Source: Candidatus Woesearchaeota archaeon (GTDB lineage Archaea > Nanobdellota > Nanobdellia > Woesearchaeales > GW2011-AR4). From it: a stretch of 64,000 bases of DNA. The notes under the pieces are model-generated. The model did not search any database and had not been told where the DNA came from. It worked only from the letters and a program-made list of their open reading frames with translations. The stretch spans positions 633-64,632 of the forward strand of contig JACPMR010000011.1 in the NCBI GenBank assembly GCA_016185945.1. The letters run 5' to 3'. This document shows, piece after piece, positions 1,859-63,433 of this stretch (its first letter is position 1; each line of letters begins with the position of its first letter). Made by a program: the position numbers and the translations under genes.

Positions 1859-1995
1859 CTAAACCACCTTTACTTAACAATTGTTAATTTTGGAATAAGA
1901 AGCAATATTTAAAGCTTTCTGAGTGCTTTCCTATATACGTTCAGAATAGTGCGAAATTCGTTATAACAGAAAACAAATGATATGCAAATTAAATC

Positions 1996-2159
1996 CAAAC
2001 AACTTCGCTTCCCAATATCTGCAAAACTATAATGGGAACCCAGCTCAGGAAAGTATGCTTATTGTCTCGAATAAATAGGCGCGGAGGAGAAGCACAAAGG
2101 AATGCAATCTCCACGGCAGAATGCCGACGCGCAGTAAAGTTTGCCGCAGGCGGTTTGAA
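1996..2159. repeat. GC-rich MITE-like element, full-length copy in inverted orientation relative to the copy at 26316..26477.
   Basis: The reverse complement aligns at about 75% over about 165 bp with 26316..26477, with shared termini TTCAA(T/A)CCGCC...GAAGCGA(A/C)GTTGTTTG(A/G). Confidence 0.6.
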
Positions 2160-2177
2160 AAAATAAGATAATCAAAA

Positions 2178-5422: not shown

Positions 5423-6412
5423 TTAGTCCCTCAATAAGTGTGCTGCCTTTGCCAAATTCTCGATTTTCTTTATCGCTATTTGCTGTGGAACTAACTCCAA
5501 GGGCCTGTTAGGCACCAATGCTAAACCTTCGGGATTTATTGTGTCTTGTATTTGTCTTGCATACTTAACGATGGCTTCAGGCTTCTCAATCAATGAATTT
5601 TTCGAATTTATTATTCCAATTTCAAGAAATTTTTTAGAATCTGCAAACTTTCGGATATTTGTTGCATAAGCATCAAAACCTATCCTGTTGACAGGCAGTT
5701 CAAGCAATTCTGGCAGAAATTTGGATACATCCCCATTGTATAAATGCAAACTTGTAATAGCTTTAACGTCTTTAGTCGCTATGCGCAAAGACTCGTTTAT
5801 AATGCTCCAAAATGATTTTGCTTCATCAGCGTATGCAATGCAAGGCTCGTTAAATTGCACAAAAGAGATTTTGCTTTCTTTCTCTAATCTATGTATTTCG
5901 TTATTTAGAATTTTTGCTATGTTTAATAACACCTCAGCAAAAATATCATTTTTTATTGTTCCATCTTCATTGCGATGAATGCCATCTGAAAGATATGCTA
6001 AAGCAAACGGGCTTGGCAGGATTATTTTTCTTTTTCCTTCTTGGGTTTTGTTTATAAATTCTGTATCGATGATTTCTTTGCCATTTCCAATTTTATTAAG
6101 AATTATGGGTTTCCTGTAAAAGGTATTTGTGTATATTTGCCTTGTTACAGGATTTTCATTGGCGTTGCTGTTCTCCCTGTGCAACTCAAGTGCAATAGCT
6201 ATTTGCCTCAGAAAATCATCCCAGAACAACTGCCCGTCTGTAACGTAATCAAGCCCAAGGTTATGCTGTAATTCTATAAGCTCTATAGTCTCTTTCTCAA
6301 GTATTTTATAGTAATCATCTTTTGTTACTCTCCCTTTTAGCCAGCTGCTTCCGGATTCCAATGCAAAATCGGATCTTGGAAATATGCCGTTTAGATATGC
6401 TTCTACATTCAT
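5423..6412 (-). CDS. MetE N-terminal-domain-like paralog, encoded as a separate gene.
   Basis: UroD/MetE-like fold signature (DGQLFWDDF...). Adjacent to metE. Confidence 0.55.
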   Translation of the reverse strand: MNVEAYLNGIFPRSDFALESGSSWLKGRVTKDDYYKILEKETIELIELQHNLGLDYVTDGQLFWDDFLRQIAIALELHRENSNANENPVTRQIYTNTFYRKPIILNKIGNGKEIIDTEFINKTQEGKRKIILPSPFALAYLSDGIHRNEDGTIKNDIFAEVLLNIAKILNNEIHRLEKESKISFVQFNEPCIAYADEAKSFWSIINESLRIATKDVKAITSLHLYNGDVSKFLPELLELPVNRIGFDAYATNIRKFADSKKFLEIGIINSKNSLIEKPEAIVKYARQIQDTINPEGLALVPNRPLELVPQQIAIKKIENLAKAAHLLRD

Positions 6413-6794
6413 ATATGGGTTATTTTAACTTCTCTATATAAATAATTTTGCCAAATTTATTCCTAAAGGAATATTTGAAATTATATTTTATTTTTTGATT
6501 AATAAAGTGAGAATCATTTCAAATTAATATTTTAAAAAATAATCAATTAAAAATATAAAATCAATCACTTGGTTTAAAACAATGATTAAATCATTTTTCC
6601 ATCACGTGGGCTTCCCTGTAACTGCTATTGTGATGAGGGAACCACAGCCTCTTATATCTGCACTTGATTGCTGGGATAAAAAGTGCCTCAGCAAAAGCGG
6701 TTTACTTTCTTTACTTATAATATATAAAAGTCGCTCTCCTGATTTTTGGATTTTTATTTATTATAATTGTTTTAATATATCTTAAAAATTAAAT

Positions 6795-7304
6795 TTAAAA
6801 ATTCTCTGTCAGATAAACAGAATAAGTTTTGCCTTTAGCTTCTCTTTTAACCAAATGCTTTTTCTCAAAATCTGTCAGTATTTGGCTTACTTTTGCTTTT
6901 GATAAGTCTGTCCTGTACCTCAAAGTTGATTGTGTAATACCACTCTGTTCCTTGATTGCCTTTAGCACCTTCTGCTCGTTTTCATCCATTGCTTTCAATA
7001 TCAATCCGAATTTATCCTCTCCTATCTTCATGTTCTTTTCGTCTTCCAGCCTTTTTAGAATTGCTTCCTCGCTTGTGCTGAAAAACAGCAGGTAAACACC
7101 CAATGCTGCAATAAAAGAAATCAAACCGACTGCTATATGGCTTAAGCCAAGCAATGACTCAACCCTCTGGCACTCGCTTGTTGGATAACACTGCAATGCA
7201 GTTGTCTGCCTGCCTAAAACACCCAAAAATCCAAATGCCAATATGGTTGCAACTATGCTGAATGACAGAATCACAAACCCCAGCTTCTTATTTTCCATCG
7301 ACAT
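6795..7304 (-). CDS. Membrane-anchored winged-helix (MarR/PadR-like) transcriptional regulator.
   Basis: Two N-terminal TM helices followed by a wHTH (SGITQSTLRYRTDLSKAKVSQILTDFEKKHLVKRE). Confidence 0.5.
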   Translation of the reverse strand: MSMENKKLGFVILSFSIVATILAFGFLGVLGRQTTALQCYPTSECQRVESLLGLSHIAVGLISFIAALGVYLLFFSTSEEAILKRLEDEKNMKIGEDKFGLILKAMDENEQKVLKAIKEQSGITQSTLRYRTDLSKAKVSQILTDFEKKHLVKREAKGKTYSVYLTENF

Positions 7305-7497
7305 CTGTTATATTTATTTTGCAGTATATAAATTTTTTGGAGGATTTAAGCAGATTGTGTTAAATGGGTTCCATCAAGCGGCATAAACCTTTAACATTTA
7401 GGGATGATATACCAGTATTGGTATACACAATACTGAATACCACCAGACAATAAAACCAGCACAACCTTTTTAAACCACTACTTTTTACGATGTGCGG

Positions 7498-9588
7498 GTG
7501 AAAAAATTCAGAACATTAAAAAGACAGAAAATACTAGTAACATCTGCATTGCCGTACGCCAACGGGCCGATCCACGTAGGGCACCTAGTTGAATACATAC
7601 AGACAGACATATTTGTCAGATTTCTAAGATTAATTGAAGAAGATGTTTTGTATGTCTGCGCTGACGACACCCACGGAGCGCCTATTGAAATAAAGGCAGC
7701 AGAGTTAAAAATAACCCCAGAGCAATTAATTGCAGATGTCTATAAGGAGCATGTTCAGGACTTCAAGGATTTCTCAATCAGCTTTGACAATTACTACACA
7801 ACAAACAGCCCGGAAAACAAGCATTACAGCGATTTAATATTCCTGAGATTAAAGAATAAAGGCTACATTTACACAAAAGACATTGAAGTTACTTATTGCG
7901 AAAACTGCAAGAGAACATTGCCGGACAGGTATGTCAAGTGAAAATGCCCAAAGTGCAATGCCCCTAATCAATATGGGGATGTTTGCGAGCAATGCAATGC
8001 AGCTTACAAAACCATTGATTTAATAGAGCCGTATTGTGCAATATGCAAAAACAAGCCAATCAGAAAAACTTCAACCCACTATTTCTTCCAATTAAGCAAA
8101 TTCTCAAAAAAGCTTGAGTCATGGCTGACAAAAAACAAAAACTTGCAGCCGGAAGTAAAAAATTTTGTCCTGAACTGGATAAAAAATGGATTGGAGGACT
8201 GGAACATAAGCAGGGACGGCCCTTACTTTGGCTTCAAGATTCCAGGGGAAGAAAACAAGTACTACTATGTTTGGCTCGATGCCCCAATCGGCTACATTGC
8301 AAGCACCGATAATTATTGCAAGAAGCACGGCTTGAAGACAGAAGATTACTGGAACAGCAAGGATGCGGGAATCTATCATTTCATCGGAAAGGACATTACT
8401 TACTTCCATCTCTTGTTCTGGCCTGCAATGTTGATGGGTGCTGATTTTGAATTGCCTCAAAGCGTTTATGTCCATGGCTTTTTGACAGTCAACGGCGAGA
8501 AGATGAGCAAAAGCCGGGGAACTTTCTTCACCGCAAGGGAATTTCTGCAAAAATACAACCCGGAATATCTTAGGTTTTACTATGCGAGTTTGTTGAGCAG
8601 GAATTTGTCGGATATAGATTTAAGTTTTAATGATTTCAGGAAAAAAATCAATAATGAATTGGCTTCAAACATTGGAAATTTCTGCTACAGGGTTCTGAAT
8701 TTCCTGAACAAGCATTTTGGCGGGCAGGTCAATGGCTTGGACAATAACAAGCAACTAACCAATGAAATCAAAGAAAAAATCAAAAACATTGAAAAAAATT
8801 ATCATGACTTGAATTTCAATGAAGCTGTCAAGGATATATTGCATATTTCTTCGCTCGGCAACAAGTATTTCCAGGAAAGCGAGCCATGGAAATTGATTAA
8901 AGAAGACAGAGAAAAAGTTAATAAAATTCTTGGCTTGTGCGTGAATATTGTCAAAAATTTAAGCATTTTAATACAGCCAATTCTGCCGGATTTTTCGTCA
9001 AAGCTGCAGCAGCAATTAAATCTCAAAAACCTTAACTGGAGCAGCCTTGGTTTTGAACTGAAAAAACATAAAATAGGAAAAGAGGAGATTTTAATCAATA
9101 AAATTGAGGAGGAAGGGCAAAAGCCGATATTCCCGCTTAATTTAAAAGTTGCAAAGATAGTTGAAGTAAGGCAACATCCGAATGCCGACAAGCTCAGCGT
9201 CTTGGATATTGACTTAGGCGCTGAAAAAAGGCAGATAGTTGCTGGATTAGTTGGACACTACTCAAATGAGGAATTGAAGAACAAAAAAATAATTGTAATA
9301 ACCAATTTGAAATATGCAAAGTTAAGGGGGGTTGAAAGCCAGGGAATGCTGCTTGCCGGCGACGACGGAAAGAATGTCGGCTTATTAACTGTTGAGAAAA
9401 GCAATCCCGGCGACAGGGTTTATTTTGAAGGGTACGAAACAGGCAGGGAAGAAACAAGCTTTGACAGCTTTCAGAAGATAAGGATGCATGTGCAGAGTGG
9501 CAAGGCATATTTTGAAGGCAGGGAATTGAAAACAGACAAGGAGATTGTAAAAGTGGAGAAAGCAGCAGACGGAGCAAGAGTCAGATAG
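7498..9588 (+). CDS. metG: Methionyl-tRNA synthetase with a C-terminal EMAP/Trbp111 tRNA-binding domain. The reading frame is interrupted by a single in-frame TGA at 7939..7941 (ORF-track fragments 7492..7941 and 8143..9588 are one frame).
   Basis: HIGH motif PYANGPIHVGH; KMSKS motif; zinc knuckle KCPKC...CEQC colinear with E. coli MetRS; tRNA-binding C-terminus. TGA aligns to the conserved Gly of VKGTCPKC. Confidence 0.85.
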
Positions 9589-10793: not shown

Positions 10794-11375
10794 ATGGAAC
10801 AAGAAGCTAAACAAGTAAAACAAATCATAACAAAAGACATGACTATTGGTGATGTTGTAGCTAAATACCCAGCTTGCATAGAAGTATTGATGTCTGCAGG
10901 GGTTCATTGCGTTGGATGTCATGTTTCTTACTTGGAAACTCTTGAGCAGGGATTTAAAGGGCATGGAATGGCTGATGAGGAAGTGGATGCAGTAATTGCC
11001 AAGCTAAACGCAGCTGTTGAAGAGTCAAAGCTTGATGAAGGCAAAGATTTCATAATCACAAGCAAAGCAGCTGAAAAATTAAGGGAAGTTTTGAAGGAAA
11101 ACAATAAGGAAGGCAGTGGCTTGAGGGTTGAGATTGTGCCGGGCGGCTGTTCCGGTTTCCAATATGGCTTGGAGCTTGACGACAACACAACTGACTTGGA
11201 TTTGATTTTTGAGGAAAAAGGGGTAAAAATAATAGTGAACAAAGAAAACATGCAGTTCCTGAAAGGCGCAAAGCTCGACTATGTTGACAGCCTGCAGGGG
11301 GCTGGCTTCAAGATAAGCAATCCAAATGTCAAGAGCGGCAGCAGCTGCGGTTGCGGGCAGAGTTTTGAGTATTAA
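10794..11375 (+). CDS. Fusion of a DUF1858 (hybrid-cluster-associated redox disulfide) domain and a HesB/IscA A-type Fe-S carrier.
   Basis: N-terminal MTIGDVVAKYP...HCVGCHVS; C-terminal GGCSGFQYG and SSCGCGQSF signatures of IscA/ErpA. Confidence 0.7.
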   Translation: MEQEAKQVKQIITKDMTIGDVVAKYPACIEVLMSAGVHCVGCHVSYLETLEQGFKGHGMADEEVDAVIAKLNAAVEESKLDEGKDFIITSKAAEKLREVLKENNKEGSGLRVEIVPGGCSGFQYGLELDDNTTDLDLIFEEKGVKIIVNKENMQFLKGAKLDYVDSLQGAGFKISNPNVKSGSSCGCGQSFEY

Positions 11376-11395: not shown

Positions 11396-11575
11396 GAAAA
11401 ATAAATTTAAAAAAATCAATCCCGAGAGCGACTTTGAAATCTAAAGGCGATAAAAGTAAACCGCTTTTAATGTTATTAATGATAGGCGAGCTCCGAACAA
11501 TTGGCAGGGAAGTGAGGAGCGAGCACTAAAGTTTGTGAGCGTAGCGAACGGATAATTAACTAATAAATCAAGGTG
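11396..11575. repeat. GC-rich intergenic repeat block of the same family (GTCGCTCTCGGGATTGA module in reverse orientation, then GAGCGAG-rich segments).
   Basis: aatcaatcccgagagcgac is the reverse complement of gtcgctctcgggattgat seen at 30207..30225. Confidence 0.45.
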
Positions 11576-21904: not shown

Positions 21905-22012
21905 ACACCGCCTCTGCAATTTGCACATGAACGCATGCTTTATAGTGCCTTCTGTAAAAGCTGGTCTCCTTTTTCACTTTTTAAATCAAAAGGACGCTCT
22001 CGTATTGGTTAA
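21905..22012 (+). repeat. Diverged copy of the GGGTGCCCCGCA...AAAGCAGGTTTCCT element plus an AAAGGACGCTCTCG module.
   Basis: ggggacaccgcctctgca...agtgccttctgtaaaagctggtctcct...aaaggacgctctcg aligns with 30066..30175 and 56693..56770. Confidence 0.4.
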
Positions 22013-22114
22013 ATTTTTATTGAATTTTATCGAAAATTGATATTTTAATATTTAACTTAATTAAACTTTATTATAAGCAACCTATTTAAATACTCTACCT
22101 ATACCAATAAAATC

Positions 22115-24763: not shown

Positions 24764-26266
24764 CTAACCCTTCACATTCCCCACGGGCTTCAATCCAACA
24801 ACAGGCATAGAAATTCCCGCCTCTGCAACCGCATTTATTACATCATTAATATTTTTGTATGCAAAACCAGCTTCTTCAGCCAACCCCGACATTGAGATTG
24901 CTTTCACGTAAATCCCTCTTTTCTCCATGTCTCTCTGCAACTGCTCGCCTCTGACTTGCCTTTTTGCAGCAGCCCTTGACATTGTACGTCCGCTCCCATG
25001 TGCCGTACTCCCGAAAGTCTCGTCCATTGCCTTTTGGGTTCCGACAAGCAAGAAACTTCCAGTTTCCATTGAGCCTCCTATTATTACAGGCTGCCCTGTT
25101 TCCTTGTAAAGTTTTGCAAGTTCAGGATGATGCGGGGGAAATGCCCGTGTGCTTCCTTTTCTGTGCACAACAACCTTTTTTTTGTGCCCGTCAATAACAT
25201 GCTCTTCAAGCTTTGCAATGTTATGCGCGACATCATAAACCATGTGCATCTCCAATTTTTCTGCTTCTGTCTTGAAAACTTTTGAGAATCCTTCCCTTAT
25301 CCTGTGCAAAATAACTTGCCTGTTAGCAAATGCCATATTGGCTGCGCACGCCATTGCCTTGTAATAATCCTGCCCTTCATTGCTCTGGAATGGAGCGCAT
25401 GCAAGCTCCCTGTCATAAACTTCAATGCCGTATTTTTTCATTGTTCCTTCAAAAATTCTTAAGTAGTCAGTCCCAATCTGATGCCCGAATCCTCTGGAGC
25501 CGCAATGCACCATAATAACAACCTGCTCTGGCTGGGTAATTCCAAATTTTTTTGCAAGTTCTTCGTCAAAAATGTTTTCTGCCTTTACAATCTGTATCTC
25601 AAGATAATGGTTGCCAGAGCCCAAAGTTCCTAATTGTTTAATCCCTCTTTCCATTGCCTTTGAGCTTACTTTCTCCGGCTCAGCCCAGTCAATCCTGCCA
25701 TAGCCTTCAGTTCTTTCCAAATCCTCTGTCCAGCCATAGCTGTTTTCAATACACCATTTTGAGCCATATGTCATTATTTCCTTGAATTGCGATCTGCTTG
25801 CATCCACAAATCCTCTTGAGCCGACACCGGCAGGAACTGTCCTGAACAAAGTGTCAACTAATTCCCTTAATTTTGGCTGTACTTCTTTGTAGGTTAGATT
25901 TGTTGTAACAAGGCGCATGCCGCAGTTGATATCAAACCCGACTAAGGTTTAAATTCCTCCGGGTGATATCACGCCAGTCTCAGCGTCAAAAGCTGCAACG
26001 CCGCCAATGGGAAAACCGTCAAGGGCTGAATAAGAGTTTTTACTTACTCAGAATCCCCAGTGCCCATCTGGCATGCAGAATGCATATTTCTGGATTCCTG
26101 GCAAACAAGCTACATTTGTTACCTGATTAAATACACCTTCATCCATTTCCCTAAGAAGTTTTTCGGTTGCATAAATACGTGCAGGAACAAGCATACCTTT
26201 CTTATAGCTCATAGGTATTTCCCACACAGTTTTATCTACCCGCTTCATAGGTGGAAGCTCTGCCAT
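24764..26266 (-). CDS. rtcB: RNA-splicing ligase RtcB. Frame interrupted by two small in-frame insertions, each introducing a stop codon (TGA at 26048..26050, TAA at 25949..25951). ORF-track fragments 26048..26266 and 24764..25918 are one frame.
   Basis: MPDGHWGF[*VSKNSYSALD]GFPIGGVAAFDAETGVISPGGI[*TLV]GFDINCGMRL... is colinear with the archaeal RtcB consensus once the bracketed 33-nt and 12-nt segments are removed. Confidence 0.85.
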
Positions 26267-26315
26267 AGTTCTTTACCTCCTTCTTGTTTAAATTGATTGT
26301 TTATTATTTTAATTT

Positions 26316-26477
26316 TTCAATCCGCCTTCGGCAAATGTTAGTGCGCCTCGGCATTCAAATGTTGAGGTTACTTTTTTGTACTTCTCCTCGGCGCAAATTT
26401 ATTGGGACTGTCAGCGACACTTTCCTGAGCTGGGTTCCCATTAATGCTTGCAGATGCTGGGAAGCGACGTGTTTGAA
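26316..26477. repeat. GC-rich MITE-like element, full-length copy.
   Basis: TTCAATCCGCCTTCGGCAAA...GCTTGCAGATGCTGGGAAGCGACGTGTTTGAA. Partner copy at 1996..2159 (inverted). Right-end module also at 32705..32733. Confidence 0.6.
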
Positions 26478-26645
26478 ATATTTTTTTTATTAAATGTTTA
26501 TTTTTATTGAAATGTAAATAAATCCATTTTTGCGTAGAATTTGCATTCCACGCACGCTCTCTGCAAGAACCATATTGCGAGCATGCGCAGTGAAAGATAG
26601 AATACTTACTACTTATTTAAAGGTTGTGGTTATTATTTTACTATT

Positions 26646-29773: not shown

Positions 29774-29816
29774 AACGAAACTATTTTAAATTATTGCTAG
29801 TTCTGTCTCTTTTAAT

Positions 29817-29989
29817 GGGGCAGTAGCTCAGCCTGGGTATTGAAGCAGGCTTAGCCGGGCTTTCCTTCAGGAAAGAGCACACAACTTTTCCAGTTGGCTT
29901 AAACGGCTGAAGACGGTATTTTGAGCAAAGAAATTTGCAATGAAATGTCCGATACCGTGGAGTCAGGAGTTCAAATCTCCTCTGCCCCA
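29817..29989 (+). tRNA. tRNA-Phe(GAA) with three introns: 36 nt in the D-loop (29838..29873), 22 nt in the anticodon-stem 5' strand (29883..29904), 41 nt in the anticodon-stem 3' strand (29915..29955). CCA not encoded.
   Basis: Joining the exons gives GGGGCAG-TA-GCTC-AGCCTGGGA-GAGC-A-CACGG-CTGAAGA-CCGTG-GAGTC-AGGAG-TTCAAAT-CTCCT-CTGCCCC-A, with all four stems pairing. ORF-track 29781..29990(-) is a spurious overlap. Confidence 0.75.
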
Positions 29990-30039
29990 CTCTTAATATT
30001 TTTGAATTTTTTTATTAATTATTTTAAATCAACCATCAT

Positions 30040-30230
30040 GCGACCCAATATCCGCACACTGAATTGGGTGCCCCGCAGTTATTGTTGCACTTGATTATGG
30101 AGGTAGATAGTGCCTGTAGCTAAAGCAGGTTTCCTTTATCACCTAAGAAATCTAAAGGACGCTCTCGTTATTGTTTGATTTATTTTTTATTTAATCAATC
30201 AATCTAAAAGTCGCTCTCGGGATTGATGGG
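30040..30230 (+). repeat. GC-rich repeat block: GCGACCCA...GGGTGCCCCGCA...AAAGCAGGTTTCCT element plus AAAGGACGCTCTCG and GTCGCTCTCGGGATTGA modules.
   Basis: Aligns with 56665..56770, 49393..49580 and 21905..22012. Confidence 0.45.
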
Positions 30231-30277
30231 TTTTTATGGTATTATAAGATTGATGTTATAAACTATTTAAATTATTT

Positions 30278-32526: not shown

Positions 32527-32733
32527 TTTAATCCGCCTTCGGCAAAATTTATTGAATTATTTTTTATTTCTTCAATCCGTCGCTGTTGCTTGCGATTGAC
32601 ATGGCGAGTGAGTCTAGTGACATGTGAGCGAGTTCACTTCGCTCACTCGCATGCCACTCGAGCCTCACATGTCACTGCTCGCGTGCATGTCCCACATCAT
32701 GCTTGCAGATGCTGGGAAGCGAAGTTGTTTGAA
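32527..32733. repeat. GC-rich MITE-like element containing a long nested palindrome.
   Basis: TTAATCCGCCTTCGGCAAA ... gacatggcgagtgagtctagtgacatgtgagcgagttcacttcgctcactcgcatgccactcgagcctcacatgtcactg ... GCTTGCAGATGCTGGGAAGCGAAGTTGTTTGAA. Confidence 0.6.
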
Positions 32734-32802
32734 TTAATTTTTTGATTTTGTTTTTTATTGAATTTTTGTTGTTGATTTTAAATATTGTATTTATTTTATT
32801 AA

Positions 32803-36237: not shown

Positions 36238-36380
36238 ATAATCGGTAATAAAAGGTTATTGTATTATTGTTTTTTGAAAAAATAATATTTATTGTAATGC
36301 CTCAATGTCTAAGGCAAGAAGAACTAACATATCAACTAAAGGATAACTTCAAATAAAACGTCATTAAAAAATAAACTAAT

Positions 36381-36462
36381 TTCAATCCGCTCGCTATGCT
36401 CGCAAAAGATAGCGCTCGGCAAAACTTTCCCTTTCAATCAGTTTTGCCTCGCCTATTCATTC
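36381..36462. repeat. Short GC-rich repeat copy (TTCAATCCGC...CGGCAAAAC module).
   Basis: ttcaatccgctcgctatgctcgcaaaagatagcgctcggcaaaac is nearly identical to 61393..61440. Confidence 0.5.
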
Positions 36463-40335: not shown

Positions 40336-40390
40336 TTCAATCCGCCTGCGGCGCATGTTACTGCTCGGTGGCATTAACCGCCTCGCCTAT
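40336..40390. repeat. Short GC-rich repeat copy.
   Basis: TTCAATCCGCCTGCGGCGCATGTTACTGCTCGGTGGCATTAACCGCCTCGCC shares termini and motifs with 26316.. and 58569.. Confidence 0.45.
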
Positions 40391-40508
40391 ATATTAAAAA
40401 TCGAAGATTTTTAAAATCCCGAAAATCTCGCGATTTTCGCGACATAATCGAAAATAAAATGCTTCTTAACAATAAACTTTAAATAACATTCTTCAAATCC
40501 ATGATCTC

Positions 40509-46689: not shown

Positions 46690-46830
46690 AAAGTAAGCGT
46701 GATAAAAGTGAACCGTTTTAGATGAATGTGCTATTTTTCATAACAATCCAGCACAACAGATGTGGCAGGTTTCCTATTATAGTCGGGAGAGAGCCTAGGA
46801 AGCCTCGGGATTGAAAAAATTTATTATTGA
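46690..46830. repeat. GC-rich repeat fragments (GCAGGTTTCCT and GGAAGCCTCGGGATTGAA modules).
   Basis: Matches module ends seen at 49595..49614 and 30124..30140. Confidence 0.35.
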
Positions 46831-49382: not shown

Positions 49383-49614
49383 TTCAATCACGAGGCGACC
49401 CATCGACACAACCAAGTGAGTGACTTGTGAGCGAGTTCGCTGTTGCTTGCGAGAAAAGCTCGCAAACTCGCTTTTCAGGTCGAACGAAGCTCACTCGCAT
49501 GCCACTGGGTGCCCCGCAATAACAGAGGCACTTAAATGCAGCGATAAAGTGCAACATAAGAGGCTGTGGCTCCCTTATCACTAGGACATTGACAGGGAAG
49601 CCTTGGGGATTGAA
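49383..49614. repeat. Composite GC-rich repeat: TTCAATC terminus, GCGACCCA, a nested GAGCGAG palindrome, the GGGTGCCCCGCA element and a GGGGATTGAA terminus.
   Basis: Termini TTCAATCACG ... CCTTGGGGATTGAA form an imperfect terminal inverted repeat. Internal modules are shared with 30040.., 56655.. and 32590.. Confidence 0.6.
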
Positions 49615-49973: not shown

Positions 49974-50522
49974 ATGCACAAGCAATTAAGGCTTTTTTTA
50001 ACGGCAAATTCCTTTTTTGCGCTGGCGGCAGGAATGCTTGGGCCTATATATGCATTATTTGTCAAGCAGATTGGAGGGGATGTGCTGGCAGCTAGCGGTG
50101 CATGGGCAACTTTTATGATTGTTTCAGGACTTGGCATATTTTTAATGGGCAAAATCCAGGATAAAATAAAAAGAGAAAAGCCAGTTATAATAATTGGGTA
50201 TTTCCTGCAGAGCTTGGGTTTTCTTGGATATTTTTTTGTTTCCAATATTGTTCAGTTATTTATAGTGCAGGTGATATTGGGGGTTAGCTTAATGATTCAG
50301 ATTCCGGTTTTTAATTCATTTTATACAAAGTATCTTGAAAAGGGAAAATATGCTTCCCAGTGGGCTGCTTGGGAAGGGTTGTATTTCACGATTACGGGCA
50401 TCGCGGCGCTTATTGGGGGGTTTGTAGTGAAATTTTTTGATTTCAAGTTTTTATTTTTGATGATGTTTGGCTTGTCTTTAATTGGATTGGCATTGTCTAC
50501 TCAGTTAAAAGAGGAAAAATGA
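49974..50522 (+). CDS. Six-TM membrane protein resembling half of an MFS transporter, translationally coupled between gatC and gatA.
   Basis: Starts 2 nt after the gatC stop and overlaps the gatA start (ATGA). Confidence 0.45.
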   Translation: MHKQLRLFLTANSFFALAAGMLGPIYALFVKQIGGDVLAASGAWATFMIVSGLGIFLMGKIQDKIKREKPVIIIGYFLQSLGFLGYFFVSNIVQLFIVQVILGVSLMIQIPVFNSFYTKYLEKGKYASQWAAWEGLYFTITGIAALIGGFVVKFFDFKFLFLMMFGLSLIGLALSTQLKEEK

Positions 50523-55565: not shown

Positions 55566-55594
55566 AGAATTCTATCCTTAAGAATAAAGAAGAA

Positions 55595-55649
55595 TGGCCG
55601 AGTCTGGCCGATGCACTAACCTAAAATCCAGTTGACATCTACCCGCAAG
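55595..55649 (+). other. Degenerate tRNA-Leu-like 5' fragment (D-arm, anticodon-arm-like and variable-arm-like segments) directly upstream of the intact tRNA-Leu.
   Basis: TGGCCGAGTCTGGCCGATGCACTAACCTAAAATCCAGTTGACATCTACCCGCAAG parallels GGCAGAGTTCGGCTTAATGCGCTGGACTTAAGATCCAGATGACACTACCCGTGTCA but lacks a pairing anticodon stem and a 3' half. Confidence 0.35.
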
Positions 55650-55692
55650 AATAATCATATTAGTGAAGTATTTAAACTTTGCTATCGGCAAA

Positions 55693-55803
55693 GCCAGGGT
55701 GGCAGAGTTCGGCTTAATGCGCTGGACTTAAGATCCAGATGACACTACCCGTGTCACGCGGGTTCAAAGTCATCATGGGATGCTGGAAATCCCGTCCCTG
55801 GCG
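55693..55803 (+). tRNA. tRNA-Leu(TAA) with an approximately 21-nt intron inside the T-loop (about 55769..55789).
   Basis: Acceptor GCCAGGG/CCCTGGC; anticodon arm CTGGA-CTTAAGA-TCCAG; variable arm TGACAC-TACCC-GTGTCA; T-stem GCGGG/CCCGT flanking TTCAAA[gtcatcatgggatgctggaaa]T. Confidence 0.7.
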
Positions 55804-55886
55804 CCGAAAAATATTGGATTTATAATTTAATGGGAAGGTGTAGTTTACAGAAAAGCTTATAATAAATCTTTTTATTCTTTATTTTA

Positions 55887-56539: not shown

Positions 56540-56654
56540 CCCTAGTTGCTATATAAGTAAAAGAGGTATATATAATTTTTGCATATGATATATATAGGTA
56601 TATAGGACTCAAGATAATAAATAACTTAACAGAATTAAATCTTAAATTTTTTTC

Positions 56655-56790
56655 AAAAACTAACAGGCGACCCAAGCACTGCTCGCTAGAATGGGTGCCC
56701 CGCAGTGCTTCTGGCGCTATAAACCATGACTTAAAGTGCCACTGCAAAAGCAGGTTTCCTCTATCATGCTTATATTCAGAGGAAGCTCTT
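56655..56790 (+). repeat. Copy of the GCGACCCA...GGGTGCCCCGCAG...AAAGCAGGTTTCCT element.
   Basis: Near-identical segments to 30066..30140. Internal complementarity between gcgacccaagcactg and cagtgcttctggcgc. Confidence 0.45.
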
Positions 56791-56855
56791 GTTATTGTTT
56801 GAATTTTGATTTATTGTTTCTTGAATTTAATTTTATTCTAATAAAAGATATAGAA

Positions 56856-58385: not shown

Positions 58386-58568
58386 ATACCACCCAAAAGT
58401 AAAGAATCAAGTTTTGTATATAAAAGTTGCTGTTAAAAAAATATTTTTGAGTTTTTTGAATTTAAATTTTGATTAATGTTTATGCCCCAATGTCAAAAGC
58501 AAACAGTCAGAAATGTAAGAGCTAAAGGAAAACTTGAAAGAAAACATATTAATATAAAAATCGAATAA

Positions 58569-58710
58569 TTCAATCCGCTCGCTGTTGCATGCGAGGAAAG
58601 CTCTGTTGCTTGTGAGCGTGCTCACAAGCTCGCACGCATGTCGCATGCTCGCTTTCCATGTCGCTCGCAAATTTTACCCTCGCAAGGCATTAACCTTGCT
58701 CACTATATAT
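58569..58710. repeat. GC-rich repeat with the TTCAATCCGC terminus and GCATGCGAGG/CTCGCAAGC palindromic blocks.
   Basis: Shares the gcattaacc and ctcgc/gcgag modules with 40336.. and 61241.. Confidence 0.5.
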
Positions 58711-58718
58711 TATAAAAA

Positions 58719-61104: not shown

Positions 61105-61240
61105 TTTATTTTTTTGTTTGCTGTCTGGAAATTATATTATTGAAATGGCTTATTGTCAAAGCCAAGAAGCACTAAGAGGATTATAGTAAAGGCAACAAAT
61201 AATTGAGCATAAATTATTGCCTTTACTTGTCAAAAATCAG

Positions 61241-61476
61241 TCGAATGGTGAGCGAGGCGAACCTCGCATGTCACTGATTTTTGTCCAGTGACATGCGAGA
61301 GCTCGCTGTTGCTTGCGAGAACGCTCGCAAGCTCGCGTTCATATCTCGCTCGCTCAACTCTATAAGCATGAAATGCATTCTATAAACTAAAATTCAATCC
61401 GCTCGCTACGCTCGCATAAAATAGTGCTCGGCAAAAATTCTTCTGTCATTGAATTTTGCCTCGACTGTTTATTGAA
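61241..61476. repeat. Two adjacent GC-rich repeat units: a nested palindrome (61241..61370) and a TTCAATCCGC...CGGCAAAAA unit (61393..61476).
   Basis: tcagtgacatgcgag/ctcgcatgtcactga inverted repeats. Second unit nearly identical to 36381..36462. Confidence 0.55.
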
Positions 61477-62646: not shown

Positions 62647-63248
62647 ATGGAATTTAATTTAGATTCATTAAGTAATGAAAGGTTAGAGATATTGACTAGA
62701 ATACACGCCCATTTATGTGGAGATGGTAATTTGTGCTTCTATAAAACTTCTGAGAAAGACAGGATAAATAGGGCTTCTATATCTTATTTTAATACAAACA
62801 TAGATTTAATTAATTCTTTTAGAACAGATATGAATAATTTATTTGGGGTAAAAATGACATATATTCCTAAGCTAACAAGAGTATCAGTTCAAAGTTTAAG
62901 AATTGCAAGAGTATTATCTAAATTAGGAGAGTATGGGGCAAGAGACTGGAGAATACCTAGAATAATAAAAATGCTAATAGAAATATTAGATTAGAGTGGA
63001 TTAAGGCTTTTTGTTATGATGAAGGATACACTCCTAAAGGTAGGTCAATTATTAGAATAAAATCAATGAATATTAATGGTTTAAAAGATGTCAAAGGTCT
63101 TCTGCATTCTATTGAAATTGATTCATGGATTACAGGTATAAATTGTGATGATTCAGGGTATTTAAACATTAGAAAAATGAGAGAGTTAGAAGATTTCTAT
63201 AAGAAACCATCAAGAAAAAAGATAATAGCGGGAGGAAGACTTCCCTGA
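62647..63248 (+). pseudogene. Double-motif LAGLIDADG homing endonuclease, disrupted by a -1 frameshift near 62990.
   Basis: Motif 1 RIHAHLCGDGNL in frame A (62647..62994). Motif 2 WIKAFCYDEGY in the next frame, open from 62961 to 63248. Confidence 0.5.
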
Positions 63249-63380
63249 GCATTGCTCATTTTGAACTTCCGACCTTTCTCCCTAGCTTTTGGCTAGTATG
63301 GGTGTCTAGAGCTGATAGGCTATATGAGCCCATCGGGCAAACAGGCACTATTAAGTGTCTCCTGGCTGCCCTATCCCGCT
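63226..63380 (-). tRNA. Initiator-type tRNA-Met(CAT) (A1:U72), apparently carrying four introns: D-arm (about 19 nt), anticodon loop 37/38 (about 19 nt), 43/44 (about 22 nt) and T-loop (about 20 nt).
   Basis: Minus strand reads AGCGGGA-TA-GGGC-AGCCAGGAGA[..]GCCC-G-ATGGG-CTCATA[..]A-CCCAT-[..]AGGTC-GGAAG-TTCAAA[..]T-CTTCC-TCCCGCT-A. 155 nt total = about 75 mature + 80 intronic. Each intron has its own hairpin. Confidence 0.6.
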
Positions 63381-63433
63381 ATAGTAACTGAGAATAAAAC
63401 GCGCTTTATAAACGTTGCTGAAAAATATGCAAA

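Follow-up and report, generated by a model that had tools for sequence, protein, structure and literature searches.

A stretch of 64,000 nucleotides from a Woesearchaeota-like DPANN archaeon, referred to here as the window, carries GC-rich repeated elements at 14 intergenic loci, and these elements, among them the focal copy at 26316-26478, are the subject of this work. The gene content of the window is archaeal and includes, by Pfam, RtcB, archease, HerA, a Mre11-like nuclease, a split MetE, translin, GatCAB, and glycine-cleavage and lipoate genes, and the closest relatives of its RtcB, at 85-92% identity, are labelled Candidatus Woesearchaeota or Nanoarchaeota. The standard genetic code is used, since TGA is a normal stop that ends 21 of the 60 open-reading frames (ORFs), which rules out an alternative code as the cause of the broken genes described below. 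Overall GC content is 37%, and 18% of the window is intergenic. Three related genomes, represented by L001, L007, and L015, show synteny with the window, and their coding regions have ~70-80% nucleotide identity to it. The elements are repeated, conserved across species, and covarying in their base pairs, with no conserved ORF and no recent transposition, and they are most likely interspersed structured RNA elements in families specific to a clade of Woesearchaeota-like DPANN archaea.

The 37 intergenic regions of the window were compared all-vs-all by blastn. All 13 loci listed in a preliminary description of this DNA proved to be GC-rich, non-coding, and mutually similar, and a 14th was added at 6590-6770. 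The elements at these 14 loci have modules in common and lie strictly between genes, as had been stated; together they amount to 2,334 nt, or 3.65% of the window, with a GC content of 43% compared to 26% in the remaining intergenic DNA and 38.6% in genes. The end motifs quoted earlier are present, with TTCAATCC occurring 15 times in the window, 10 of these in the 18% that is intergenic. The similarity reported between the two full-length copies (about 75% over about 165 bp) is real, with blastn giving 79% over 181 nt between 1996-2175 (minus strand) and 26300-26475 (plus strand; E = 1e-35), while the two shorter copies at 36381-36440 and 61393-61450, described as near-identical, match at only 81.5% over 92 nt (36371-36461 and 61382-61473; E = 3e-20). 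Further matches join 30017-30191 to 56645-56815 (70.6% over 177 nt), 26444-26511 to 32699-32762 (84%), and 49419-49474 to 61287-61339 (84%), and many shorter module matches are found among the intergenic regions. The set is repeated, modular, and non-coding, but it is not the single family first proposed: several families (F1, F2, F3/M5b, M3b, and D) with common end motifs are combined as mosaics, as listed below by family and then by element.

F1 family: 26316-26478 and 1994-2159
F2 family: 30017-30240, 56645-56815, and 49383-49614
M3b, the 3′ module of F2, as solo copies: 21941-22014, 6679-6751, 6593-6667 (minus strand), 46748-46820, and 11415-11473 (minus strand)
F3/M5b family: 36378-36461, 61390-61473, 11480-11553 (minus strand), and 40336-40392
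D module, rich in GCGAG/CTCGC: 58566-58712, 61236-61365, and 32590-32700, and also inside the hairpin loop of the F2 copy at 49383
26316-26478, plus strand: focal F1 element (covariance-model match of 182 bits, alignment to 41 other copies, covariation counts), with TTCAATCC at 26316-26323, a P1 hairpin GCC-TTC-GGC at 26324-26332, an H2 helix of GCGCC (26343-26347) with GGCGC (26390-26394) that holds TC/TC tandem mismatches, a CU-rich tract CTTCTCCTC at 26381-26389, the invariant 25-mer at 26419-26443, TTCCCA (26435-26440) pairing with TGGGAA (26458-26463), and TTTGAA at 26472-26477
26481-26488, plus strand: oligo-T tract 3-4 nt past the F1 closing helix, a putative archaeal terminator
1994-2159, minus strand: the other full copy of F1, with 79% identity to the focal one (covariance-model match of 181.7 bits), beginning ~18 nt past the stop of an AsnC-family gene (2178-2639)
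32527-32733, plus strand: mosaic element (blastn; weak covariance-model match of 36.6 bits) made up of a 5′ hairpin of F1 type, a second copy of TTCAATCC at 32571, a long D-type hairpin rich in GCGAG/CTCGC, and an F1-type 3′ end GCAGATGCTGGGAAGCGAAGTTGTTTGAA
40336-40392, plus strand: short element of an F1-type P1 and an M5b hairpin (GCTCGG-hairpin-CCTCGCCTAT), with a weak covariance-model match of 39 bits over 40336-40453
36378-36461, plus strand: F3 element of TTCAATCC, GCTCGC-TAT-GCTCGC, and an M5b hairpin (blastn, 81.5% to 61382-61473; nhmmer)
61236-61476, plus strand: long GC-rich hairpin of D type (61236-61365), with an F3 element (61390-61473) after it (blastn, nhmmer)
58566-58712, plus strand: element of TTCAATCC, a CTCGC-TGTTGCAT-GCGAG hairpin, D-type hairpins, and a terminal hairpin
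30017-30240, plus strand: F2 element directly downstream of tRNA-Phe, with an M2 hairpin GCGACCCA...TGGGTGCCCCGCA, two tandem M3b 3′ modules, and the terminus GTCGCTCTCGGGATTGATGGG
56645-56815, plus strand: F2 element, 70.6% identical to 30017-30191, folding as a multi-way junction with the closing helix TTCAAAAACTAACAGG / CTTGTTATTGTTTGAA
49383-49614, plus strand: F2 element with a ~100-nt D-type insertion in the M2 hairpin loop and mutually pairing ends TTCAATCACGAGGCGAC and GCCTTGGGGATTGAA
46690-46830, plus strand: element with an M3b-type 3′ module and the terminus GGAAGCCTCGGGATTGAA
21905-22014, plus strand: solo M3b-type module, 74% identical to 30107-30196
6590-6770: two inverted M3b-type modules, 6593-6667 on the minus strand and 6679-6751 on the plus strand; the locus absent from the earlier list
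11396-11575, minus strand: mosaic whose 5′ part (11480-11553) is F3/M5b and whose 3′ part (11415-11473) is M3b, between Fe-S and ferritin genes

Two other kinds of sequence were seen near these elements. Downstream of the focal element, at 26530-26600, there is another GC-rich block that is conserved; it is unrelated to the listed families and matches L001 9779-9918 at 74% over 141 nt. AT-richer small hairpin modules (e.g., GCAAATCGAAGATTTGC with a GAA loop) recur beside or inside the GC-rich elements, at 40400-40470, in L015 at 7100-7190, in L041, and in L021 at 7790-7845.

Copies of F1 outside the window were obtained from four GTDB Woesearchaeota metagenome-assembled genomes, in which an F1 20-mer occurs at seven loci, and from groundwater metagenomes, in which a looser two-block pattern occurs at 41 loci, giving 42 distinct copies with the two of the window included. 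Nine copies served to build a covariance model, which recovers 40 full-length copies with scores of 58-185 bits, as well as the weak window matches at 40336 and 32527, and the density is one to two copies per contig of 50-400 kb. The order of parts is constant, beginning with a 5′ UUCAAUCC, the P1 hairpin with a UKC loop, a short linker, and the H2 helix with a tandem U.C/C.U mismatch between G-C pairs. After the mismatch, the interior carries conserved GGCAUUC and GUGCUCCUCCUC tracts, replaced in two subtypes by a hairpin with a CUGCCA loop, and a conserved CUCCUCC tract resembling an anti-Shine-Dalgarno sequence is also present. The 3′ domain consists of an invariant ACUUUCCUGAGCUGGGUUCCCAUUA followed by UUCCCA, which pairs with UGGGAA across a variable loop, and the 3′ end of GCGACGU followed by UUUGAA, which pairs to the 5′ end and precedes the oligo-T tract by 3-4 nt. 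A 25-mer is invariant across species, and the pattern GAA-WTW-T(4-8) recurs behind nearly all F1 copies.

Covariation was measured on a model-based alignment of 44 sequences and 16 pairs, with 500 shuffles and the sliding of the partner by 1-3 columns as controls. Standard pairs were present in 97.1% of cells compared to 91.5% in the shuffles, both sides had changed in 8 of the 16 pairs compared to 3.5 ± 0.9, and no observed measure was reached by any shuffle (0/500), while sliding the partner gave pairing of 61% or less. P1 is represented by at least 10 distinct Watson-Crick stems of 2-6 bp around the UKC loop, and in its variant GCUCGC-UWC-GCUCGC the U.C/C.U mismatch appears again with covarying flanks (GUUCGC/GCUCAC and GCUCAC/GUUCGC). 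H2 occurs as GCGCC/GGCGC, GCGCG/CGCGC, GCAUG/CAUGC, GCACC/GGUGC, and GCACG/CGUGC, and among the window copies the M3b stem varies in the same manner (CCUUU/AAAGG, CCUCU/AGAGG, ACUUU/AAAGU, and CCCU/AGGG). The two ends of each window element (TTCAATC.../...GATTGAA) are mutually complementary, over as many as 18 bp in F2-type copies (TTCAATCCCGAGAGCGAC / GTCGCTCTCGGGATTGAA), and their changes are element-specific, compensatory, and of the U.G type. These ends had been taken for imperfect terminal inverted repeats, and the complementarity holds, but they behave as the closing helix of an RNA and not as a conserved transposase-binding sequence. Profiles of the F2, M3b, M5b, and D modules found few relatives beyond the window with nhmmer, so the covariation of these modules rests mainly on within-window copies. 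The structure of the elements is under selection, and they show the generic mark of a structured RNA, compensatory changes across species together with the lack of a conserved ORF. The suggestion of a structured element family is strongly supported, with covariation above all controls and conservation across species.

Known identities were also considered. Rfam 15, with families that include tRNA, SRP, RNase P, riboswitches, and self-cleaving ribozymes, gave no matches at gathering thresholds, its eight matches with E up to 10 all lying outside the elements, and ARAGORN found no tRNA; fragments of tRNA or rRNA, an origin raised in the preliminary description, were ruled out on this basis, and the T-loop-like UUCAAUCC is without a 5′ T-stem partner. 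The sole recurring ORF, encoding MGTQLRK... on the opposite strand, varies in length from 12 to 54 aa and has lost its ATG in seven copies. C/D-box small RNAs (sRNAs) were rejected because TGATGA is absent in 30 of 30 F1 copies and CTGA, where present, is internal, and H/ACA guide RNAs because there is no ACA box. A hand check of the focal F1 closing helix and L040 found no bulge-helix-bulge (BHB) processing motif in closing helices or around D-type inserts. Integron attC sites have ends unlike these (RYYYAAC/GTTRRRY) and the neighbours here are housekeeping genes, an argument made from the sequence with no formal scan. The relation of (A/G)TTTCAATCC to CRISPR repeats comes down to a 9-nt resemblance, with no arrays present. 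In IMG/VR, the F1 pattern had no matches, and a 17-mer from the F2 arm had four, all within GC-rich phage coding sequence and compatible with chance. Literature searches turned up no repeat or RNA family already described from DPANN archaea or Woesearchaeota. We know of no described counterpart of the closing helix UUCAAUC/GAUUGAA combined with the U.C/C.U internal loop.

The copies within the window are 70-82% identical to each other. Among the 42 F1 copies, every pair with at least 88% identity has homologous flanks, indicating that these pairs are orthologues and not recent transpositions. Orthologous F1 elements are conserved at least as well as the adjacent coding sequence (91% compared to flanks of 88% and 84% in one case, and 90% compared to 71% in another), and the F1 copy that stands divergent to rtcB persists in at least four genomes. 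Target-site duplications, which it had been proposed to look for, are not visible, as no recurring direct repeat occurs in the tabulated flanks of ~30 F1 copies, where AT-rich sequence hides duplications of 1-2 bp. As had been noted for the window, no transposase was found, and no integrase or reverse transcriptase domains either, in the main ORFs of the 64 kb or in the Pfam-annotated relatives L001-L010; likewise, no transposase of the REP-associated tyrosine transposase (RAYT) type or any other appeared in ~320 kb of related sequence with Pfam calls.

The elements are occasionally gained, lost, and remodelled between relatives, and there is some long-term mobility. The spacer occupied by 32527-32733 has no element in L015, and in L001 another element, with similar ends, takes its place, while L015 bears an element beside a PilB-like gene that the window is without. 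The F2 copy after tRNA-Phe is missing at the same site in L001 and L007, with extra genes there in L015, and at the site of 11396-11575, flanked by the Fe-S and ferritin genes, the L001 element matches that of the window in ends and orientation but differs in its interior, and L007 has none. On a smaller scale, the clean insertion of a 55-nt hairpin, one of the AT-richer modules mentioned above, sets L021 apart from its orthologue L015, and in L040 and L055 D-like inserts lie within H2 and P1. Given the homologous flanks, high conservation, lack of target-site duplications and transposase, and slow turnover, the elements appear to be old and selected, and the proposal of a proliferating family of MITEs (miniature transposable elements with inverted repeats) does not fit the 70-82% identity, the common flanks of the most similar pairs, or the conservation of orthologues.

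The gene context of the elements is regular. Of 28 F1 copies with two neighbours, 27 touch at least one gene 3′ end, the gene at the F1 3′ end converges on the element in 25 of 36 cases, and the F1 5′ end is adjoined by a gene 3′ end, not a promoter, in 15 of 34. Where a divergent neighbour lies at the 5′ end, its ATG is located 27-35 nt (leaderless) or 45-67 nt (Shine-Dalgarno-led) from TTCAATCC in at least 13 of 19 cases, in agreement with the TATA-to-ATG spacing of ordinary window genes. The intervening sequence toward the divergent gene opens with an A/T box directly after GGATTGAA, the reverse complement of the element 5′ end, which places GGATTGAA at the expected position of the transcription factor B recognition element (BRE) of that gene, and TTTAWWTT is conserved beside TTCAATCC even with no gene there to drive. 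In the window in general, a TTTATATA or TTTAAATA box whose end lies 22-26 nt ahead of the ATG precedes most genes (e.g., 6795-7304, 5423-6412, and 10794-11375), which so look leaderless, and a minority, rtcB among them, have a strong GGAGG ribosome-binding site instead.

We tentatively favor, at somewhat less than an even chance, the reading that the loci are copies of several related, undescribed families of multi-copy structured small-RNA genes transcribed from the TTCAATCC strand. Each element would most likely be transcribed from the strand beginning with TTCAATCC, the RNA would fold into a multi-helix structure in which the 5′ end UUCAAUC... pairs with a 3′ end of ...GAUUGAA or UUUGAA, and the oligo-U tract just downstream would stop transcription. 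The families may be paralogues of old date, diversified through duplication, the exchange of modules, and the insertion of small hairpins and kept by purifying selection, with small RNA genes packed tightly against neighboring promoters and terminators. They probably act as RNAs, possibly via a common protein partner that recognizes the closing stem and the G-C-flanked U.C/C.U internal loop, and, more speculatively, the ribosome-binding sites used here, GGAGG, could pair with the CUCCUCC of F1. We infer the transcribed strand, the transcript ends, and a function in trans from sequence features. On the TTCAATCC strand, U.G wobbles are found in the closing helices (three copies end in UUUGGA) and in M3b, where GUUUCC/GGAAGC alternates with GGCUCCC/GGGAAGCC; the oligo-T tract behind the 3′ end is present even where both neighbor genes are co-oriented with the element, and a T5-GAA-T7 signature likewise follows the tRNA-Phe gene of the window. 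Several observations weigh against this reading. Folding energy shows no strand preference (mean ΔG difference of -0.2 kcal/mol, with the plus strand more stable in 16 of 30 copies), and choosing the strand by energy was abandoned since the strands do not differ. For several F3 and D modules the opposite strand gives the better fold, and on that strand the U.C/C.U mismatch would, going by established nearest-neighbor and NMR work, be a stable tandem G.A and the P1 loop a GNA triloop. No canonical TATA box lies at a fixed -25 to -30 upstream of F1, TTTAWWTT abutting the 5′ end instead, and some copies start less than 20 nt past an upstream stop codon, leaving no room for a promoter of their own. 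The invariance of the F1 3′ domain, the fold of which is provisional, says little because this domain served as bait and search pattern, from which the invariance partly stems. Window elements occupy 10 of 15 co-directional, 2 of 10 divergent, and 2 of 6 convergent spacers, only 1 of the 28 F1 copies lies in a divergent spacer, and modules occur in both orientations, with inverted pairs at 6590-6770, L022, and L031.

Avoidance of divergent spacers and the use of both orientations are typical of cis elements like the repetitive extragenic palindromic (REP) sequences and bacterial interspersed mosaic elements (BIMEs), and an extragenic element of this kind is the alternative that we consider unlikely but serious. 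Such elements would act in cis on transcripts running through them, by 3′-end protection, by termination or insulation, or as a promoter element at their end, and would be dispersed by a hairpin-recognizing enzyme or recombination. This would suit the mosaic organization, the contact with gene 3′ ends and the convergent 3′ neighbors, the near-equal folding of both strands, the constant orientation of the Fe-S/ferritin element in the window and L001, the gain and loss of sites between relatives, and GGATTGAA with its A/T-rich box at the BRE/TATA position of divergent neighbors. It sits poorly with elements that are 60-240 nt and multi-helix with long, strictly conserved unpaired blocks, not palindromes of 20-40 nt, with copies that are diverged and few per family (one or two F1 per contig), with the absence of a RAYT-like or other transposase from the sequence examined, and with an opposite strand that has no U tract for termination. 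Decayed MITEs, that is, non-autonomous DNA transposons whose transposase is encoded elsewhere or lost and which are now neutral relics, are improbable: their size (80-240 nt here), complementary ends of up to 18 bp, intergenic position, lack of an ORF, nesting of some elements in others, and sites occupied in one genome and empty in a relative are all as would be expected, but there is no target-site duplication, no pair of similar copies in different contexts, and no transposase in the window. In addition, orthologues conserved at least as well as coding sequence indicate substitution rates well below neutral, compensatory changes maintain the helices, the "inverted-repeat" helix included, and the 25-mer is invariant across species. 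Signals acting at the DNA level, such as protein-binding sites or cruciforms with no RNA role (e.g., promoter or insulator cassettes ending in a BRE), could account for the regular geometry of the 5′ end relative to divergent start codons, the conservation of TTTAWWTT with no gene to drive, and the symmetric folding of both strands. However, stems that covary while their length varies, with loops from 3 to 60 nt, point to single-strand folding and not duplex recognition, the U.G wobbles are strand-specific, and many copies have a gene 3′ end, not a promoter, at their 5′ end, making this reading just as improbable as the decayed MITEs. Barely more probable are DPANN-specific modular RNA or hairpin cassettes that might disperse with no classical transposase, through an RNA intermediate or the EndA and RtcB cut-and-ligate machinery as for the mini-introns described below, in which GGATTGAA would be a portable BRE bringing promoter and insulator to the neighbor and the U.C/C.U loop would mark a new ribonucleoprotein.

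Further GC-rich intergenic islands, beyond those listed earlier, are intron-containing tRNA genes at ~29816-29990 and 55700-55815 and, probably, 63224-63394, and the tRNA genes of the window carry up to three introns. The tRNA-Phe(GAA) gene (~29816-29990, plus strand) has several non-canonical introns and was missed by ARAGORN and Rfam, and its orthologues in L001, L007, and L015 have one to three introns at partly different positions. The tRNA-Leu(UAA) gene (~55700-55815, plus strand) has a T-loop intron and scores 23.7 bits in Rfam, below threshold; upstream of it, at ~55590-55650 (plus strand), a duplicated GAAGTATTTAAA promoter box precedes a tRNA-like 5′ piece, perhaps a tRNA that is split or degenerate. 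The island at ~63224-63394 (minus strand) shows an acceptor-like pairing of GCGGGA...TCCCGC and a segment resembling a T arm, and it probably represents a tRNA gene with several introns. Variants of EndA in DPANN archaea have been linked to disrupted tRNA genes (PMC5829648).

Protein genes of the window are interrupted as well. The rtcB gene (24764-26266, minus strand) contains two in-frame mini-insertions, 26019-26051 (33 nt) and 25939-25950 (12 nt), each with a stop codon. The 33-nt insert folds as a full BHB and the other as a bulge-helix-loop, and cleavage two nucleotides into each bulge restores the RtcB motifs ...GHWGYGFPIGG... and ...PGGIGFDINCG.... Given these stop-bearing inserts, the mRNA of the tRNA-splicing ligase itself appears to need splicing by EndA and RtcB; archaeal mRNA introns have so far been described for cbf5 (PMC2738675). 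The first insert is common to L007 and absent in L001, and it probably occurs widely, since for many database homologues the called protein has the same truncated length of 384 aa. In metG (7492-9588, plus strand), which encodes methionyl-tRNA synthetase, an in-frame TGA at 7939-7941 replaces a universally conserved glycine (RYVK*KCPKC compared to RFVxGxCPxC) with no inserted sequence, and could be a sequencing error, a nonsense mutation, or a case of readthrough or editing. A 182-aa fragment of a major facilitator superfamily transporter (49974-50522, plus strand) lies between gatC and gatA, within an otherwise ordinary gatCAB cluster. For annotation, this means that the routine call for an intron-split rtcB is a truncated protein of 384 aa and that standard tools miss multi-intron tRNA genes.

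DPANN genomes are tiny and almost nothing is known of their non-coding RNAs, and here ~4% of a 64-kb stretch, or ~20% of its intergenic DNA, consists of structured, conserved elements for which no RNA family described so far is a match. Should they prove to be small-RNA genes, they would make up a large and still unexplored class of regulators or ribonucleoprotein components in archaea, in which a structural motif recurs; should they be REP-like, they would join the small number of REP/BIME-like systems characterized in an archaeon and could explain how promoters and terminators are organized in compact genomes. The F1 covariance model and patterns provide a handle for mining groundwater metagenomes and metatranscriptomes.

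Compared to known systems, the elements resemble the REPs and BIMEs of Enterobacteria and Pseudomonas in being extragenic and higher in GC than their surroundings, in forming hairpins with compensatory changes and mosaics in both orientations, in favoring spacers near gene 3′ ends, and in having no target-site duplications, and REPs too are thought to act at the RNA level. REPs, however, are single imperfect palindromes of 20-40 nt with a conserved GTAG head, present in hundreds of near-identical copies and linked to a RAYT, whereas the window elements are multi-helix structures of 60-240 nt with long conserved unpaired blocks, 70-82% identity, and few copies per family per genome, with no RAYT in the sequence examined and an archaeon as host. 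A short palindrome in hundreds of copies is thus not what is found, while mosaics of alternating orientation next to gene 3′ ends are. Prokaryotic MITEs (Correia/NEMIS, RUP, ERIC, and Sulfolobus SM1-4) are similar in size range, inverted ends, non-coding and intergenic nature, possible outward-facing promoters at their ends, and presence or absence between relatives. The window elements differ from them in that no target-site duplication, cognate insertion sequence, young copies, or closely similar copies at unrelated sites were seen in the sequence examined, in that the terminal inverted repeats change between copies by compensatory and U.G substitutions as an RNA helix would, and in that orthologues are under purifying selection. 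Mobile BHB introns of archaeal tRNA genes, known from Thermoproteales and DPANN with a broad-specificity EndA (PMC5829648), occur in the same genomes as small structured inserts within RNA genes, but the closing helices and D-type inserts of the elements form no BHB by the hand checks on the focal F1 copy and L040, and the elements are intergenic and not embedded in genes. Multi-copy archaeal sRNA families found as GC-rich islands (the approach of Klein, Misulovin and Eddy 2002; C/D-box sRNAs, PMC6009581) differ from the window elements, which have no C box (0/30), no ACA box, and no Rfam match, but the two are alike in appearing as islands, in covariation, in many paralogues per genome, and in oligo-T ends.

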